The notes under the pieces are model-generated. The model was not told the origin of the DNA, searched no databases, and saw nothing but the letters and a program-made list of their open reading frames with translations. The translations under genes were made by a program, and so were the position numbers. A stretch of DNA of 64,000 nucleotides from a virus (lineage: Duplodnaviria; Caudoviricetes): the IMG/VR virus record IMGVR_UViG_3300025679_000005; one strand, written 5' to 3'. Each line of letters begins with the position of its first letter. The first letter of the stretch is position 1. This document shows, piece after piece, positions 3 through 7,731 of the stretch.

Positions 3-650
3 ACCACAGGTCGTGAAGTCTTATTGGGGGTACCTCGTAGGGACCCCGCCAACGATTCGGTGGGGCTGTACTATGCAAGCATTATCATCCCGTTGGACGC
101 CAATATAGGCGACTACCACCTTCGTTGGACGTTCCGAGAGACCTTGGGTGGTAAGGTCAATCAGGTAGTTCAACAATTCAATGTCATCGACAAGGTGACC
201 TCGGGCTTGGTGTCTGTCGTCAACTGCTCAGAGGCGGCACTGATTAGAAGCTTGAGAATACTCCTAAGAGACCAGAATCCTTCGAGGAATTACCACTTTC
301 GTCCACCGGCCCACGAAGAAACCATTAGTCAATTCAACAAGGTCTTTGGCTACATCTGGGAAGATGAGGAACTAGGAGAGTACCTCATCAGGTCTCTGGA
401 CATGGTCACAGCTGCTCCTCCGCGAACGCCCATCCCTACCGTCGACATCTTGGTTCGAGATTACCCAGAATGGCGAACGCTAGTGATCAACGGGGCCATG
501 ATGTACGCCTTGCTGGCTTTGGCAATCAACTGGGTGTCGGATGAATTTTCCGTTGGGGGCGAAACACCCGTTAAAGTCATCTTGGGCGACGGGGAGGAAG
601 TCATTCTTCCTATTGAAGAACTTTATGCTATAATCCACGAGGAATCATGA
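3..650 (+). CDS. Fractured gene part 1: N-extein of a putative head-tail adaptor/neck protein fused to split intein N-fragment (5' end lies outside the window)
   Basis: Frame is open from position 3. Helical extein ends ...AINWVSDEF, followed by intein block A-like SVGGETPVKV...PIEELY and a TGA that overlaps the next ATG (ATGA, 647-650). Confidence 0.8.
   Translation, partial: TTGREVLLGVPRRDPANDSVGLYYASIIIPLDANIGDYHLRWTFRETLGGKVNQVVQQFNVIDKVTSGLVSVVNCSEAALIRSLRILLRDQNPSRNYHFRPPAHEETISQFNKVFGYIWEDEELGEYLIRSLDMVTAAPPRTPIPTVDILVRDYPEWRTLVINGAMMYALLALAINWVSDEFSVGGETPVKVILGDGEEVILPIEELYAIIHEES
549..647 (+). other. Split intein N-fragment (IntN, 33 aa, Ser1)
   Basis: SVGGETPVKVILGDGEEVILPIEELYAIIHEES matches the intein block A pattern (S/C-x-x-G-D/E-T-x-V...I-E-E/D-L). 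Confidence 0.85.
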
Positions 651-1600
651 AACTTCTGTCTAAAAGACAAGCCTGTCTTCAATACGGGTTCAACTTTAGG
701 ACAGTGGGCACGCTAATTGACAGCGGTATTCTCAGAATAGCCTCAAATAGCACCCCTCTTCGTCCAAAAATAGTGGGCTTTGAGGATCTTGTTGAGGGTA
801 CGCACTACATAGTGTGTCTGGAGTGTGGAGCATTTCAGACCCAGTTGTCTAGTAAGCATCTTTCAGCTTGTGCAGGTATCTCACTAGAGGCGTATTTGAA
901 TGCGCACCCCGGAGCGGCTCTGCTGGCCGCGTCTTGTAATAAGACGAAAACAGAAGCCCAGAAGACAGCCCAATCTGAGTTGCTCAAAGCGAGATTTAAG
1001 ACTGAGGCAGGGGAAGTCACTCGAAAGCAAATTGCAGTGGCTGCTCTAAAATTGCAAGCTTCCGGTTACCGTGAGCAGGCTTCGGAGCATCTCCGTACAC
1101 TTAATAGCGACCCCCAGCAAAAAGCCGCTCGTTCTAGAGAGACTAAAGCTAGGTGGGCTTCCGGAGAGGTACCTATTGTCCAAAATGCTTGGATGGGTGA
1201 GCATTGGGAGGAGGTCCTCGAATCCGCTGCGTACGCCCGTAGGCATATCAAGCGAAAATTCACTAAACCTCATGCAAGAGTCAAAGAAGCTGTTGAGGCC
1301 TCGGGCCTTGTGGGGTTCATTACTGAATATGAGACCGGGTATTACTCCATAGATGAGGCCCGCCCGGATCTACGTTTGGCTGTAGAGATTGATGGGTGTT
1401 ACTGGCATGGCTGTGGAGAGTGTGGCTTTCCGGGAGTGGGCCGCATCAAACAGTACGATGCTAGTAAAACAACCTATCTGAACAATCGTGGGTGGACTAT
1501 TGTCCGCCTCCTTGAGCATGAGATCAAGGCTGATTTAGAATGGTGCATCCGTAAAGTTACGGAGACTGTAAAAACTCTCTCTGAACGAGGTGTCTTATGA
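647..1600 (+). CDS. Free-standing Vsr-like/DUF559 (EDxHD-type) homing endonuclease with N-terminal Zn finger
   Basis: EGTHYIVCLECG...KHLSAC Zn finger; C-terminal YSIDEARPDLRLAVEIDGCYWHGC...KTTYLNNRGWTIVRLLEHE nuclease motifs; ATGA overlaps at both ends. Confidence 0.8.
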   Translation: MKLLSKRQACLQYGFNFRTVGTLIDSGILRIASNSTPLRPKIVGFEDLVEGTHYIVCLECGAFQTQLSSKHLSACAGISLEAYLNAHPGAALLAASCNKTKTEAQKTAQSELLKARFKTEAGEVTRKQIAVAALKLQASGYREQASEHLRTLNSDPQQKAARSRETKARWASGEVPIVQNAWMGEHWEEVLESAAYARRHIKRKFTKPHARVKEAVEASGLVGFITEYETGYYSIDEARPDLRLAVEIDGCYWHGCGECGFPGVGRIKQYDASKTTYLNNRGWTIVRLLEHEIKADLEWCIRKVTETVKTLSERGVL

Positions 1601-2007
1601 CAATATGCATAGAAACACGTAAGACCACCATTCGTGAGGCTTTTAGGGCAGGACAGCTTCGAGTTTTGGCTGTAGACCCCACATCTGGAACTACTAGTCT
1701 TTGCAAAATCTCTGATGTGATGCGGCACAACACCTCACATAAAAGTATGACCCGAACTACAGTCCAGGACGGACGTTTCGTGGATACGACGGTAGATCAC
1801 TCTCTGTTTTTCAGATCCGGTGATGGTGTGACTCCGGTACAAGCTGAGGAGATAAGAGTAGGAGATGTGATCGCATCTGTGGACGGGGTTCTAGAAGATG
1901 CTGTTGTGGCAAACGTGGAGAGACTGCCAGCTCAAGAGCACACCTACGATCTGTCTGTTCCCGGGCCAGAGAACTTCGTGCTTGCGAACGGTATCCTAGC
2001 CCACAAT
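1597..2007 (+). other. Split intein C-fragment (IntC, 137 aa, ends His-Asn, +1 Ser)
   Basis: Blocks B, F and G are all in this ORF. CAC-AAT-TCC (H-N-S) at 2002-2010. Confidence 0.88.
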
Positions 2008-2235
2008 TCCTACTCTATTGGAGGCGTTTCTCTGGAAATCGAAAAAGCATCCAAGTATGAATCTCTCTACCAGACGCTGAAGGATCAGTTCGATTCGCAG
2101 CTCGACAAAGCCAAGGCCACGGTCAAGTTCGTCAGAGGCTTGCAGCAGCCCAAGTTCGGGATTGGCATCCGATCCAGCTTTGGCCCCTATGTAGGTGGGG
2201 GTGTGCTAAGCCCCAGGCAGTTCGTAGGGTTCTAA
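1597..2235 (+). CDS. Fractured gene part 2: split intein C-fragment fused to 75-aa C-extein
   Basis: Block B TTVDHSLF, block F TYDLSVPGPENFVLANG, block G ILAHN|S. The extein continues SYSIGGVSLEIEKASKY. Confidence 0.88.
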   Translation: MTICIETRKTTIREAFRAGQLRVLAVDPTSGTTSLCKISDVMRHNTSHKSMTRTTVQDGRFVDTTVDHSLFFRSGDGVTPVQAEEIRVGDVIASVDGVLEDAVVANVERLPAQEHTYDLSVPGPENFVLANGILAHNSYSIGGVSLEIEKASKYESLYQTLKDQFDSQLDKAKATVKFVRGLQQPKFGIGIRSSFGPYVGGGVLSPRQFVGF

Positions 2236-2251
2236 GGTTTTTTTTAGTTCC

Positions 2252-2279
2252 TTGACTTTATTGGAGTTTTGGTTACTAT
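2252..2279 (+). promoter_or_regulatory. sigma70-like promoter TTGACT-N16-TACTAT, probably giving a leaderless transcript
   Basis: -35 at 2252-2257, -10 at 2274-2279, ATG at 2285. Confidence 0.5.
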
Positions 2280-2284
2280 GCAGG

Positions 2285-3859
2285 ATGCCTTCTGTCTGCC
2301 AACACTGCCAAAAGCACTTTCCTAACTCCGATATCGTAAACTCTCGCCACAAGGCTGTATGTGCCGGCTGGCAATCAGAGGTGGGCTCCGTCAAGCCTTT
2401 GGCGTGCCTGTGCGGGCACAAGTCCACTTCGATGACTCAGATGAAGAGGCATCGCTCCACGTGCTCCTCGTGGAAATCTCGTGATAGGGGCGAGGTGCAG
2501 ATGGCCCGCTTGGCTAAGACGCTTCAAGCAAACTATGGCCAAGACGTTGCCCATCCTAGGCAGCTTGCAGAGGCTGAGGCACGTCGGAAGGCAACGTTGA
2601 AGGAGCGCTATGGGGCAGAGAACGTATTCAGTAGAGAGTCTTCTCTGTATACTAAAGTCCGTGAGGCAGGTGATGCCAATCGAAAACCTCTGTATGGAGA
2701 GGCTAACCCGTTCTCTTGGCCAGAGGTTCAGGAGAAAATTCGACAGACAAACCTAGACAAGTTTGGGGTTGAGAACCCTCAACAGAGTCCTGAAGTACGC
2801 TCAAAGACTCAGGCGACTAATTTGGAGAGGTATGGCGTAGAGGAGATTTTGGCAGCCCCGGCCATTAGACGCCGAATTGAAGCTACCAATGAGGCTCTCT
2901 ATGGTGGCCCTACCCCATCATGCTCACCAGGGGTTGTGGAGAGGGCTAGGCAAACCAATCTTGAGCGGTGGGGGGTCGAGTGGACGGCTCAGCACCCAGA
3001 GATTCGTAGGCAGCAATTGGAGACGATGATTGAGAACTACGGATCCCATTTCTTTGCCTCAGAGGTGGGACGTACAGTAATTCGAGAGCGCCTGGTTGAA
3101 AAGTATGGTGTGGATCATTCGGCAAAGATCGACGGCTTTTGGGATAGGTTGGTGGCTACCTTCGTTCGTAAGTATGGAGTCACCCATCCTTTGCTTTTGG
3201 CTGAGTTTTTAGAGGCACGTAGGGAAACGTGTCAAGAACGATACGGCGTCGACAATCCCCTACAGAGCCCTGAAGTCTACGCTCGTTTGATTGAGACAGT
3301 GCGGGTTCGATATGGGGTTGACTGTGTCTTTCAAGCAGAGTTTGTGAAAGAGGCATCAAGACAGACCAATACCGATAGGTACGGCCGCCCCTATTTTCTT
3401 AGCTCAGATACCCATAAACAGGACAATATTGCAAAGTACGGCGTACCTCATCCGATGATGAATCGCGAATACGCCTTGGCTCATTTAGAGAAGATGTCGA
3501 GACCAGGCCCAAATCTTCTCGAACGTCGCTTTGCCTCAGCGCACCCCACTTTGATGTATGTCGGCAACGGTGCCTACTGGAGGTGGCTACCAAAACTGGG
3601 GCACCATAAGAACCCTGACTTCATCTTGCCCGGCCCAGACTCGGAGCATCCAAAGAAGGGTGTGACCAAGATTGTTGAGTTGTTTGGGGACTACTGGCAC
3701 TCCAAGATTTTTACGGGGAAGGCCGATTTTGACCACGAGCAGGAGCTGGTTGCAGCTTATGCGGAATCTGGATACCGGTGTCTGATCGTCTGGGAGTCAG
3801 AATTCAAGCAGAATCCGCAGGAAGTCAACGAACGGGTACACACTTTCCTCAGCGTCTGA
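2285..3859 (+). CDS. Free-standing Vsr-like endonuclease with two C2HC Zn fingers and about 14 YG repeats
   Basis: Repeats such as ERYGVENP; C-terminal KNPDF...IVELFGDYWHS...GYRCLIVWESE. The ORF track starts at TTG 2252; ATG 2285 is preferred because the promoter overlaps 2252. Confidence 0.75.
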   Translation: MPSVCQHCQKHFPNSDIVNSRHKAVCAGWQSEVGSVKPLACLCGHKSTSMTQMKRHRSTCSSWKSRDRGEVQMARLAKTLQANYGQDVAHPRQLAEAEARRKATLKERYGAENVFSRESSLYTKVREAGDANRKPLYGEANPFSWPEVQEKIRQTNLDKFGVENPQQSPEVRSKTQATNLERYGVEEILAAPAIRRRIEATNEALYGGPTPSCSPGVVERARQTNLERWGVEWTAQHPEIRRQQLETMIENYGSHFFASEVGRTVIRERLVEKYGVDHSAKIDGFWDRLVATFVRKYGVTHPLLLAEFLEARRETCQERYGVDNPLQSPEVYARLIETVRVRYGVDCVFQAEFVKEASRQTNTDRYGRPYFLSSDTHKQDNIAKYGVPHPMMNREYALAHLEKMSRPGPNLLERRFASAHPTLMYVGNGAYWRWLPKLGHHKNPDFILPGPDSEHPKKGVTKIVELFGDYWHSKIFTGKADFDHEQELVAAYAESGYRCLIVWESEFKQNPQEVNERVHTFLSV

Positions 3860-4579: not shown

Positions 4580-5944
4580 ATGTCCTACGCCTCAAACCGA
4601 GACCGGAATCCGTCCACGCTTGAGTTGACAAAGGCCGCCGAACCTGCGGCCCCGCTCAACTTGTTCATGACGAGCGGCTACAAGCCAGGTGTTTTCGACC
4701 TGTCGTGGACTGACCCCTCTCAGTTGGCCGTCAACGGCAATTTCCAGATTTGCGGCGTCAACATCTATCGCTCGTTCGATTCCGAGTTTGGGCCGTACAC
4801 CCGCATCAACCAATACCCTCTAGGGGGTACATTTTGGAGGGACCAGACAGAGAACGCCTTGGTCATTGATGAGGTCGTGACTGACGACATGTGGGTCATG
4901 CGTGGCGAAGACGTTGCAGCGGGGATGAACGCCCCCAGGTACGTCTTCCGCACACAGTTGGGGCCGATCGTCAAGGAAGGCTCTCAAGCGGTCTATGCGA
5001 ACGCCATCTCCGATGTGGAGGTTCAGATCGACGGGATGACAGCGAGGCTCGCTAGAGTGTTTGGAGAGGCTTGGGAGGTCGAGATAGACCCGAACCCGTA
5101 TCCTAACGTCACAACGCAGACCGAAGACCTGGGGACAGTACCTGGCCCCAGCAGTGTCGTAACTGTGAGCTATCGGTACAGTAGGTCGTTGCTGAGAACG
5201 GACTTGGCTCAGCGTATCTTCTACCGAGTGACCACGGTGGGTACGATGATCAACACTGACGGTGCGGGACCCTCAGATCCCCGGGAACTTCTTGAGACGC
5301 AGTTGGCAAGGGCTGCTTTCACGAGCAACTCGGAAATAGAAAAGCTCGACTGGGCCTGGCGGGAGGCTGTTCGCAGAAATCACTGGATTTTGGATCAAGG
5401 TGGCGAGCGCGTGAAGGTCTTCATCAAGAAGAACGTTGGCACTATCTGTCCTTGCTACAACACGACTACGCACCATCAGCCTCTGGGGGACTGCCAGATC
5501 TGCTACTATACAGGCATTGTGGGAGGTTACGAAGGGCCCTACGATTTGATCATTGCTCCTGACGACATGGAGCGGAAGGTCGCTCAGCAGAATACTGGTA
5601 GGACCGTAGAGCACGCCTACGAAGTTTGGAGCGGCCCTAGTCCATTGCTCTCCCAACGAGACTTCATTGTCAAGATCAACGGAGATCGCTATGCCATAGG
5701 CCCTGTGAGGATGCCAACTAATCGTGGTATGGTGTTGCAGCAACACTTCAACATTGGCCACTTGGATGAGAAGGACATTCGCTACCTAGTCCCGATGGAC
5801 AACCCTAGCAGAGGCCTGCCTAACCAGGCTCAGTTGTCGGTGCCTCCATTGAATTCCCCAGCTCAGATTACAGACAAGCCTGAGATCCCTGATGAACGGG
5901 AGCTTCGCGGCCGCACGATCACATGGGCTAACATCGTATATTAA
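4580..5944 (+). CDS. Virion neck/head-closure-like protein with FN3-like N-terminus and Zn ribbon
   Basis: FDLSWTDP...GVNIYRS FN3-like motif; CPCY...CQIC; C-terminal LLSQRDFIV...RYAIGPV beta domain; position in neck module. Start is uncertain (4547 or 4580). Confidence 0.5.
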   Translation: MSYASNRDRNPSTLELTKAAEPAAPLNLFMTSGYKPGVFDLSWTDPSQLAVNGNFQICGVNIYRSFDSEFGPYTRINQYPLGGTFWRDQTENALVIDEVVTDDMWVMRGEDVAAGMNAPRYVFRTQLGPIVKEGSQAVYANAISDVEVQIDGMTARLARVFGEAWEVEIDPNPYPNVTTQTEDLGTVPGPSSVVTVSYRYSRSLLRTDLAQRIFYRVTTVGTMINTDGAGPSDPRELLETQLARAAFTSNSEIEKLDWAWREAVRRNHWILDQGGERVKVFIKKNVGTICPCYNTTTHHQPLGDCQICYYTGIVGGYEGPYDLIIAPDDMERKVAQQNTGRTVEHAYEVWSGPSPLLSQRDFIVKINGDRYAIGPVRMPTNRGMVLQQHFNIGHLDEKDIRYLVPMDNPSRGLPNQAQLSVPPLNSPAQITDKPEIPDERELRGRTITWANIVY

Positions 5945-5946
5945 CT

Positions 5947-6447
5947 ATGTTTTTGCCTAAATTCAAGATCTATTACAAGCCGTTGGTACCCAAGGGTGCC
6001 CTGGACAAGTTCGACCCTAAGAAGGTCCTGAAGTCCTTGCAGCGGGAGATCCTTGAAGAGATTCGGGGTAAGATCGAAGAGTCCGCCTTCTCTCCTAGGG
6101 CGAAACGAGCTTTGAAGAAAGCCCTCTCTACCAAGATCGCTGAGAGCAGTATTACGGTGACTGCCCACCATCCTGCCTTCTTCCCTCTTTTGGAGGGCAA
6201 GTCCAGGCAGCAGATGACTTGGCTTACGAAGGCTAAGAAGCCGATCCCTATCATTACGGATACAGGGGAGTTGATCTTCAGGTCGGCGACCCCCAGGTCT
6301 ATGGCCCGAGGTCGTTGGTACCATCCCCAAAGGGAGTCCACACACATCCTTGACAAGGCAAAAGATGCTGCCAGGACGGTGATCAAGGACAGACTCGGGA
6401 AGCAGCTCAGAAAACAACTTCAAACCTCCCTAGCGAGAATCAAATGA
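5947..6447 (+). CDS. Basic neck/tail-completion protein (HK97 gp10-like by position)
   Basis: Lys/Arg-rich 166 aa, between head-closure and tail-terminator genes. Confidence 0.4.
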   Translation: MFLPKFKIYYKPLVPKGALDKFDPKKVLKSLQREILEEIRGKIEESAFSPRAKRALKKALSTKIAESSITVTAHHPAFFPLLEGKSRQQMTWLTKAKKPIPIITDTGELIFRSATPRSMARGRWYHPQRESTHILDKAKDAARTVIKDRLGKQLRKQLQTSLARIK

Positions 6448-7043
6448 ACGATGTAGGCGGAGTATCAGTCGTGGGCTTGACCTCAGGTGGCCATTTCGTG
6501 ACGGACATCCAGATGATGATCCCCCACAAAGTCGGGGTCTATGTCCCGATCGAGAAGTACTTGAAGTCTAAGGATCTGCACCGAGCCATCAATTCGGGCA
6601 TGATCTTCAAACTCGACAGTGTGATGGGTCAGCAAGAGAACGTGGGGTCGTCCGTGGACGCTGATAAACTGGCTCAACTGGAACTAGAGAATGCCCGCCT
6701 CAAGGAAGCCTTGGAGCAGGCAAATCAGCAGAATGCCGACTTGAAGTCGGGCATGGGGGCTTTACAGGATCAAATGTCAGCCGTGCTCTTAGCCTTGGGT
6801 CGTATCGAGGCAGCCCCAAAGGTCATTCAGCAGGTGGTGAACACGGTAGGTACAACAGTTCCTGGAATGAGCCCTATGACTCCGGTCAGCGAAGTGGTGG
6901 GTGGAGATGCCCCCATGTTCTTGCCAGACTTGAGCCAGGACCTGGGGGAGGCCCGAATCAACATCACGGAGAGCACTTCTTCCGAGGGTGTCGGAGGGGC
7001 CGCCAGCAAGCTTCGGGAGTTCCGTAAGAAGGCTAAAGGCTGA
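6444..7043 (+). CDS. Hypothetical coiled-coil protein
   Basis: LAQLELENARLKEALEQ heptads; ATGA-coupled to the upstream gene. Confidence 0.6.
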   Translation: MNDVGGVSVVGLTSGGHFVTDIQMMIPHKVGVYVPIEKYLKSKDLHRAINSGMIFKLDSVMGQQENVGSSVDADKLAQLELENARLKEALEQANQQNADLKSGMGALQDQMSAVLLALGRIEAAPKVIQQVVNTVGTTVPGMSPMTPVSEVVGGDAPMFLPDLSQDLGEARINITESTSSEGVGGAASKLREFRKKAKG

Positions 7044-7074
7044 TTCTTTTGATTCGAAATCACTAGGGTAAGCC

Positions 7075-7731
7075 ATGTCAAAACGTGTAAATGCCCAGGA
7101 TCCTCATGAAGAGAGCGTTCGTGTGGTCTGGCATGAGCCGACGCAGTTCGACCCCTTGCGACACGGCCCGCCCTATCTTCCCAAGGCATCCTACGAGCCT
7201 GTAAAACTCAGCAGCCAGCAACGTGGCGAAATCCAGGGCCTGGTCAAGAAGGCGGCCTTAATTACGGCCGAATACGAAACGTCTATGACCTCGATGCTGG
7301 CGATGCTTCAGGCATTGGCCATGCTCCATCAATCGCATCATTGGAGCACGTCGGGCGCTAGCTTCTTCCAAGACCACTTGCTTTTCGAGAGGCTCTACAA
7401 CGAGTCTCTCGAACTTATTGATCAGTTGGCGGAGAGAATTGTGGGTTCGGGGGACACTCCGAACATCGGTGCCGCCTTTCAAGTAGGCATCATGAGCCGT
7501 ATCCTGGGTTCGTTAGGGGTAGGGGGCCTCCCTACGGACATGATCGCAATCAGTCTGGCCGCAGAGACCTCCTGTGTGGCCGCAGTTGCACAGCTCATTG
7601 CAAGTAAAACAGCAGACGGAACCCTAAGTCATGGGATTTCTAAGCTCCTTGAAGACATTGCCGACAAGCACGAGACCTTCGTGTATTTGCTCAGTCAGCG
7701 CTCTAAGACGGAGTCCTACGACTTCCGTTGA
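7075..7731 (+). CDS. dps: Dps/ferritin-like protein with N-terminal extension
   Basis: HQSHHWSTSGASFFQDHLLFERLY...DQLAERI matches the Dps signature (HW...G..F...H.LFE..Y...D.LAER). Confidence 0.8.
   Translation: MSKRVNAQDPHEESVRVVWHEPTQFDPLRHGPPYLPKASYEPVKLSSQQRGEIQGLVKKAALITAEYETSMTSMLAMLQALAMLHQSHHWSTSGASFFQDHLLFERLYNESLELIDQLAERIVGSGDTPNIGAAFQVGIMSRILGSLGVGGLPTDMIAISLAAETSCVAAVAQLIASKTADGTLSHGISKLLEDIADKHETFVYLLSQRSKTESYDFR

Follow-up and report, generated by a model that had tools for sequence, protein, structure and literature searches.

A phage adaptor-like gene interrupted by a putative homing endonuclease gene within a predicted Ser1/Ser+1 split intein

How could a phage produce one virion protein from a gene whose two ends are held apart by another complete gene? 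This question is raised by a 64,000-nucleotide stretch of viral DNA, hereafter the window, from the IMG/VR record IMGVR_UViG_3300025679_000005 (Duplodnaviria; Caudoviricetes). The window opens inside a gene, and its positions 3-2235 hold three tightly packed open reading frames (ORFs) on the + strand. ORF1 (3-650) ends in ...NWVSDEF followed by SVGGETPVKVILGDGEEVILPIEELYAIIHEES and a stop codon; ORF2 (647-1600, 317 aa) starts on an ATGA that overlaps the ORF1 stop; ORF3 (1597-2235, 212 aa) overlaps the ORF2 stop through another ATGA, and reads MTICIETRK...NGILAHN and then SYSIGGVSLEIEK... We consider it highly probable that this is a fractured adaptor-like gene, that its halves are joined by a trans-splicing intein with Ser at its first position (Ser1) and at the first position after it (Ser+1), and that the break comes from the endonuclease gene. 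The 946-base gap between the intein halves is one complete endonuclease gene (647-1600), an arrangement that marks the locus as a putative ‘fractured gene’ sensu Dassa et al. 2009. The three ORFs are each in a different frame, therefore read-through cannot join the halves, and we rule out both read-through and a reassigned stop codon as the joining route.

The N-extein (3-548) covers residues ~44-225 of an adaptor-like protein of ~296 aa and is 78% identical to its intein-free counterparts at loci L033 and L036. It is followed by the N-terminal intein half (IntN, 549-647), 33 aa (SVGG...HEES) comprising Ser1, block A (SVGGETPV), two strands and the helix alpha1 (IEELYAIIH), with a TGA stop at 648-650. 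The C-terminal half (IntC, 1597-2007, 137 aa) comprises helix alpha2, the NX motif (R43-H44, in VMRH at 41-44), block B (T65-x-D67-H68, in TVDH at 65-68), block F (Y117-D118...E125-N126-F127, ENF at 125-127) and block G (H136-N137, in AHN at 135-137). Ser+1 (SYSIGG) then opens the C-extein (2008-2235), which has 75 aa and a stop codon. The IntC ORF matches the Pfam family Intein_splicing (PF14890) with 53.3 bits against a cut-off of 35.8, and the residues that define a class 1 intein are all there: Ser1 after ...DEF, T65, H68, D118, H136, N137 and S+1. Block B is found in IntC and not in IntN. Both nucleophiles, named as Ser1 and Ser+1 in the initial annotation of the locus, could be read from the sequence, and its motifs confirm 549-647 plus 1597-2007 as a predicted class 1 intein, naturally split at an atypical site.

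The initial annotation had also described a Cys-free IntN and an IntC with two cysteines away from the catalytic positions. We reproduced these counts: IntN contains 0 Cys, 7 Glu, 1 Asp, 1 Lys and 0 Arg, and the only cysteines of IntC are the non-catalytic C4 and C36. Neither is conserved among 120 relatives, in which both positions are variable with Asp and His as the commonest residues. A cysteine-less intein has zero Cys over its whole length and this one has C4 and C36; likewise, between 1 and 5 Cys occur in each of the 25 distinct family inteins that we looked at. Judged by its sequence, the intein is thus cysteine-independent and not cysteine-free.

We found at least 623 homologues of ORF3 at E <=0.001 and counted conservation over the best 120, which are 48-67% identical to it, are 161-297 aa long (most 205-240) and in many cases lie on contigs of 100-500 kb. 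D67 and H68 of block B are present in 120/120 relatives and T65 in 119/120, and D118, N126, F127, H136 and N137 are likewise found in all 120. The His upstream of block B, singled out earlier as part of VMRH, follows Arg in the window, matches the NX motif of Ser1 inteins (PMC10189870) and is kept in 118/120. The residue before this His44 is R in 58 relatives, K in 24 and Q in 29; Gln at this place in 29/120 relatives departs from the Arg/Lys called invariable in 58 Ser1 inteins (PMC10189870). The ENF noted in place of the usual HNF is present in the window, but it is not unique to it, as position 125 is E in 88 relatives, Q in 31 and H in 1, and ENF also occurs in the TFIIB mini-inteins. The +1 residue is S in 101 relatives and T in 19.

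Furthermore, a scan of IMG/VR with the alignment of ORF3 relatives gave 79 loci, to which two phage records were added. Ser1 is present in 29/29 intein-bearing loci, the window included, and their IntN lengths range from 31 to 43 aa, mostly 31-35; L005, L019, L024, L025 and L026 have 31 aa. S or T stands at +1 in 29/29 occupied sites, compared to 1/53 empty sites, which otherwise have D, E, G or N (Fisher 2e-21, a value that overstates independence since the loci are related). A nucleophile is thus maintained only at sites where an intein depends on it, a pattern that is what selection for splicing would predict.

The same loci show the insertion site in several states. At the empty site, 53 intein-free homologues read ...DEF|(D/E/G/N)YSIGG... 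uninterrupted, and therefore the limits of the intein are fixed at exactly 549-647 and 1597-2007. A split intein with a homologous endonuclease gene between its halves is found in 19 loci (16 distinct), and a split intein without a full endonuclease gene in two, L015 (a gap of 120 nt in which 33 aa of the endonuclease remain) and L026 (88-nt gap). Seven loci (L007, L013, L014, L022/23, L028 and L029) have a contiguous mini-intein of 159-191 aa. Finally, the halves are in reversed order in L027, where the C-half ORF (6001-6627) lies upstream of the N-half ORF (6669-7439), 41 nt apart and with no endonuclease gene between them; if the assembly is right, only trans-splicing would rebuild the L027 protein and no cis route exists. 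Split and contiguous forms do not separate in a maximum-likelihood tree of the inteins but are interleaved in it, and its well-supported branches require at least 3-4 switches from one state to another.

One near-isogenic pair resolves the limits of the inserted cassette to the base. The split member, L020, reads ...AAAGAGGAG|GGTGAGGAGTAATG-[endonuclease]-...AAAGGAG|CGTATGATGGAC..., and the contiguous member, L022, reads ...AAAGAGGAG|CGTATGATGGAT..., so that L022 is L020 minus exactly the cassette between ...GAGGAG| and ...AAGGAG|. From this comparison it follows that the cassette carries the stop codon of IntN, its own start codon and the ribosome-binding site for IntC; the Met-Met that opens IntC in the split form is an internal Met-Met in the contiguous one. 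The difference fits an insertion and a deletion equally.

Short direct repeats, which are also placed as Shine-Dalgarno sites, lie on both sides of the cassette. In the window these are two copies of ACGAGG read from the sequence, both Shine-Dalgarno-like hexamers on the + strand, the left one (637-642) 4 nt 5′ of the endonuclease start codon and the right one (1585-1590) 6 nt 5′ of the IntC start codon. The corresponding sequences in L020 are GAGGAG (5020-5040) and AAGGAG (5975-5995), with a counterpart in L022 near 5970. The repeats may mark recombination points, or they may be there only because two ribosome-binding sites are required.

We modelled the contiguous relative L022, flanked by six extein residues at either end, with AlphaFold (pLDDT 90.9). 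Helix alpha1 in this model spans intein residues 22-30 (IEELHEIIK), a loop residues 31-37 and a second helix residues 38-48, after which come the strands of the HINT horseshoe. Aligned to L022, the IntN of the window ends three residues past alpha1 and its IntC starts just before the second helix, so both the break and the endonuclease gene fall in the modelled loop 31-37 after alpha1. The model accordingly places the break at the site known as S2, in agreement with the earlier proposal of a split right after the IEELY helix as in the AceL and GOS TerL inteins. Membership of S2 means a shared split position and not a shared lineage with either. A Foldseek search of the PDB with the L022 model gave 72 matches at E <=1e-3, and the top 26 listed are all inteins, including those of CDC21-1, PolII, Aes123 PolB1, RadA and TFIIB; TM scores of 0.7-0.8 are among the best, at 17-27% identity. 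The HINT fold is seen in the L022 model, and the halves of the window were modelled only as a complex.

For this complex, proposed as a check in the initial annotation, we modelled IntN plus 10 extein residues with IntC plus 8 extein residues, using family alignments. The score was 0.84, compared to 0.00 for the best of 3 controls; this mark is reached by 58/80 solved complexes and by 2/110 mismatched pairs. At least 86% of the contacts are common to the runs, the partner pLDDT is at least 75, and the modelled interface comprises Ser1 and its neighbours, helix alpha1, and IntC residues 40-44 (NX), 62-69 (block B), 113-119 and 127-137. The model supports the predicted docking of IntN on IntC; since intein structures have already been solved, such a pass shows likeness and not binding by this particular copy.

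Charge complementarity between the fragments, also put forward in the initial annotation, was correctly counted for the window copy. The first 60 residues of IntC have 10 K/R and 5 D/E, and the net charge is -5 for IntN residues 1-30 and +6 for IntC residues 8-60; over the whole IntC there are 18 D/E and 13 K/R (net -5), and the intein beyond IntC residue 60 has a net charge of -10. The pattern is, however, not tied to the split state. The family shows the same tendency overall. We rejected it as an adaptation to splitting, and regard it as a lineage trait, because contiguous relatives show the same acidic/basic pattern (L014 -6/+5, L029 -5/+10) and some split forms (L010, L024 and L026) do not.

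Next to the intein stands the question of which protein it interrupts. A tblastn search of phage records with the exteins gave two homologues, both intein-free at the junction (EADQF|DYSLNG and HEEF|DYSIGG): gp319 of the Tunturiibacter phage Tunturi_5, annotated as ‘head-tail connector protein’, and a protein of an unannotated 485-kb uncultured phage. The intein-free protein has ~296 aa, of which the window is without the first ~43 codons. A model of the intein-free L033 protein (pLDDT 64, moderate) has an N-terminal Ig-like sandwich and a helical domain. Its residues 113-267 align with about 12 phage adaptor or neck chains, including those of cyanophage A4, Pa223, KHP30, SU10, T4 gp13, phage 812 and P1, with Z 8.5-10.3 over ~100 residues (VIA-align), below the ~13 advised for helical domains. 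In a Foldseek search of the PDB, matches to the extein model are dominated by the Ig-like domain, with one weak adaptor match (8gtd); in Pfam the extein has only a sub-threshold match to DUF6742, and in PHROGs none. The host protein is thus a probable, and not a proven, head-to-tail adaptor (neck), because Z is below the level advised for helical domains; this assignment agrees with the annotation of Tunturi_5 gp319. No second copy of the adaptor gene was found in the 64-kb window, and it is the only copy found in the related loci too.

The phage itself is a huge tailed phage, with ORF3 recorded on a contig of 466 kb. A DNA search of phage records gave just one weak match of 139 bases, and it therefore has no close sequenced relative there. 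The window starts ~43 codons inside the adaptor gene and may start at a contig end, because an 18-kb Logan contig (L082) from the likely source sample, a peat metagenome, ends at the same base.

The gene between the halves (647-1600, +) encodes a free-standing putative homing endonuclease of 317 aa with an N-terminal CCHC zinc finger (C57, C60, H71 and C75) and a C-terminal Vsr/DUF559-like nuclease domain (199-307). In Pfam it matches DUF559 (26.6 bits, cut-off 20.6) and a Ros/MucR-type zinc finger, with Vsr (17.3 against 27) and MTES_1575 below their cut-offs, and the PHROGs labels on its matches are endonuclease and homing endonuclease. Sixteen full-length homologues occupy the same position in other phages (314-428 aa, 40-58% identical), and both the finger (C-x2-C-x10-H-x3-C) and the nuclease residues E227, D236, E237, E247, H254, D271 and K274 are invariant across them. 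This conservation fits an active Vsr-like homing endonuclease, which may be aimed at the empty extein site or else at the intein in its contiguous form. A search of PDB sequences with ORF2 gave only the marginal 3hrl (E 0.071) and did not recover I-Bth0305I, a characterised member of the Vsr-like kind first described in fractured genes (PMC3239194, PMC2677866); the assignment to the I-Bth0305I family therefore comes from the Pfam and PHROGs profiles only.

A 535-aa ORF directly downstream of the adaptor gene (window 2252-3859) has Cys/His finger-like motifs, about 14 ‘YG’ repeats, matches to Pfam DUF7487 and PHROGs ‘homing endonuclease’ and, at its C-terminus, a Vsr/MTES_1575-like nuclease. 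Homologues stand at the same position in L002, L004, L007, L008, L029, L037, L065, L066 and L081, whether the adaptor gene has an intein or not. It looks like a second free-standing homing endonuclease gene beside the adaptor gene.

Taken together, these observations suggest how the protein could be made. The adaptor would be synthesised as two chains, the N-extein with IntN and IntC with the C-extein, and the three genes may be translationally coupled by their ATGA overlaps. IntN would dock on IntC and complete the HINT fold, and class 1 splicing would then proceed via oxyesters: an N-O acyl shift at Ser1, aided by T65/H68 and the NX His44; attack by Ser+1 to give a branched ester, with Asp118 of block F taking part; cyclisation of Asn137, helped by His136, which would release the intein; and an O-N shift leaving ...NWVSDEF-SYSIGG... 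as a single chain of ~296 aa. We infer this chemistry, its thiol independence and the homing by the endonuclease. The cause of the break would be an endonuclease gene in the post-alpha1 loop of a formerly, or again possibly, contiguous mini-intein, with the cassette providing the stop of IntN, a start codon of its own and the ribosome-binding site of IntC.

Several points weigh against this scenario. For every member of the family, splicing is a prediction from sequence. Block F reads ENF instead of HNF and Q precedes the NX His in 29/120 relatives, and therefore the active site differs somewhat from those of characterised Ser1 inteins, which in their split forms frequently splice slowly or tend to aggregate (PMC12707363, PMC13014065). 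The window does not include the 5′ end of the gene, the search for a further copy covered the 64-kb window and a second intact copy may lie elsewhere in the genome, and the reversed order in L027 comes from a single 113-kb IMG/VR contig. The first of these points and the ENF of block F would also favour a relic, in which the halves no longer splice, so that the gene is either dead or works through two fragments that the intein halves keep together non-covalently; intein fragments can indeed associate without splicing, and the complex model bears on docking only. Against a relic, 120 relatives with just 48-67% identity have all or nearly all of the catalytic residues unchanged, S/T at +1 is kept in 29/29 occupied and 1/53 empty sites, ENF is shared with the TFIIB mini-inteins, and neither the window nor the related loci showed a further copy of the adaptor-like gene. 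We consider a dead relic or a non-covalent pair unlikely because Asn137, His136 and the +1 nucleophile, none of which is needed for docking alone, are invariant.

It is still less probable that the endonuclease segment is lost or skipped before or during translation, whether through a self-splicing intron, translational bypass or recoding, so that a contiguous cis-splicing intein is made and no trans-splicing takes place. Vsr-like endonuclease genes do occur in group I introns too (PMC2677866, PMC3239194), and contiguous versions of the window intein exist. However, the endonuclease ORF fills the whole gap with an ATGA overlap to both neighbours, it and IntC each have their own Shine-Dalgarno-like site and start codon, the ORFs are in three frames, and the L027 halves are in reversed order. 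In an Rfam scan of window 300-2400 with E up to 1, introns and other RNA families were absent, and the one match, to DUF805b (E 0.74), is at chance level. A chimeric contig, in which assembly had joined an endonuclease gene into an intein, might be suspected since the window is from a metagenome (peat sample) and the Logan contig ends exactly at the window start; we nevertheless exclude such an artefact, at practically negligible probability, because the three-gene arrangement recurs, at 40-70% identity, in 18 other IMG/VR contigs from different samples, and an identical ORF is recorded on four contigs. A fractured adaptor gene rebuilt by trans-splicing thus remains the reading that we favour.

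The layout of this locus is known. Like the fractured genes of Dassa, London, Stoddard, Schueler-Furman and Pietrokovski (2009; PMC2677866), it has two ORFs with split-intein halves and a free-standing endonuclease gene between them, of a Vsr-like kind (I-Bth0305I family, PMC3239194) that we assign here from profiles. The 2009 hosts, in contrast, are DNA synthesis and repair enzymes and a terminase, whereas here the host is a virion adaptor-like protein; here the intein is Ser1/Ser+1 and the break is after alpha1, not at the canonical endonuclease-domain site; and here contiguous, endonuclease-less, reversed-order and empty alleles of one site are at hand. What differs is the virion host, the S2 break and the combination of Ser1 with Ser/Thr at +1.

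Among characterised inteins, the S2 position (after alpha1) had been described only for AceL TerL and GOS TerL, both given as cysteine-dependent, and VidaL and PolB16 are split at S1, after strand beta2 (PMC13014065). As summarised in PMC13014065 (Thiel 2014; Bachmann and Mootz 2015, PMC4661395), the AceL and GOS TerL inteins share with the window intein a natural S2 split and an origin in phage metagenomes, with IntN lengths of 25 and 37 aa compared to 33 aa here; compared by these descriptions, they differ in their cysteine dependence and terminase host, the window intein having Ser at both junctions. Neither is among the PDB sequence matches to the window intein. PolB16 OarG (Pasch et al. 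2023, PMC10189870) is likewise a natural atypical split with Ser1/Ser+1, two non-catalytic Cys in IntC and an NX His after a basic residue (PMC10189870). Unlike the window intein, it is split at S1 after beta2, with an IntN of 15 aa and an IntC of 168 aa, in a PolB gene, and its own block B His is dispensable (PMC10189870); we detected no close sequence kinship between the two. A March 2026 paper calls PolB16 OarG the only known natural cysteine-less, atypically split intein (PMC13014065). Because this only known case splits at S1, an intein that is S2-split and Ser1/Ser+1 brings known features together in a new way.

The nearest PDB sequences to the window intein are the Mja and Mvu TFIIB mini-inteins (PDB 5o9j, 5o9i; E 1.6e-8), with which it has the strings ...S/M-R-H... 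and ...ENF... in common; these are contiguous and archaeal. The Aes123 PolB1 or CL intein (PDB 9hth) is split at the canonical site, and it and the TFIIB inteins have just 20-27% identity to the window family. By these comparisons no characterised intein appears close, and identity with one, named in the initial annotation as what would undo its proposal, is contradicted by the best PDB match of E 1.6e-8 and by related folds only 17-27% identical. Collectively, the parts of that annotation that can be read from sequence are supported. A literature search for the window intein, and for inteins of whatever kind in adaptor or neck genes of phages, found none, which is no proof of non-publication.

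Many relatives have a second intein in the same adaptor gene ~90 residues upstream (...LRDN|(C/S)PDRNYHF...), at a site that is empty in the window (near 273-278). We observed it in L002 (1019-3258), L057 (1130-3739), L005, L010, L013-L015, L017, L022, L024, L026, L037, L055, L059 and L079/L080. In L057 its IntN has 34 aa with Cys1 (CVGEEETIELDVDGEKMVLSMGYLWEALHDLNPPQ) and is also split after helix alpha1, and its halves enclose a different nuclease gene, PD-(D/E)xK-like (...VEVKP). Both sites are split in L005, L010, L015, L017, L024 and L026, where the adaptor is encoded in three pieces; in L013, L014 and L022 both sites are occupied and the intein at the window's site is contiguous. A third insertion site, in L057 (2363-3739), has a contiguous mini-intein near the C-terminus that is 50% identical to the window IntC (junctions ...SSFGPF|SVLGST...SHN|SGRGVLSPRKF). 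At the window's site L057 is empty yet keeps Ser (DEF|SYSVGG), the sole such case among the 53 empty sites. The Ser at its empty site and its third-site intein may reflect ectopic intein movement or recent loss.

A fast, efficient cysteine-less intein that is atypically split and has a short IntN is still lacking (PMC13014065). The initial annotation had proposed here a short IntN that can be made by chemical synthesis; at 33 aa it can be synthesised, but it is above the ~25 aa deemed convenient for peptide synthesis (PMC13014065). For protein engineering, the family offers many natural candidates at S2, a split position other than that of PolB16, and the window IntN is Cys-free. It is conceivable, though we hold this more tentatively than the fractured-gene reading, that this is the first natural Ser1/Ser(Thr)+1 family split at S2, with an IntN of 31-35 aa, that trans-splices at ambient temperature without thiols. 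If true, semi-synthetic ligation under oxidising conditions would have a new orthogonal tool, and there would be a natural series in which gain and loss of an endonuclease gene turn a mini-intein into a split intein and back.

The family comprises hundreds of diverged orthologues with near-isogenic split and contiguous pairs. For the evolution of inteins, it provides one site with every state and one pair of relatives with base-resolved cassette limits, which bears on the 2009 model for the origin of split inteins. For the biology of these phages, some of which have two or three inteins in the same adaptor gene, it would mean that an adaptor-like virion protein, probably needed for assembly, depends on post-translational ligation.

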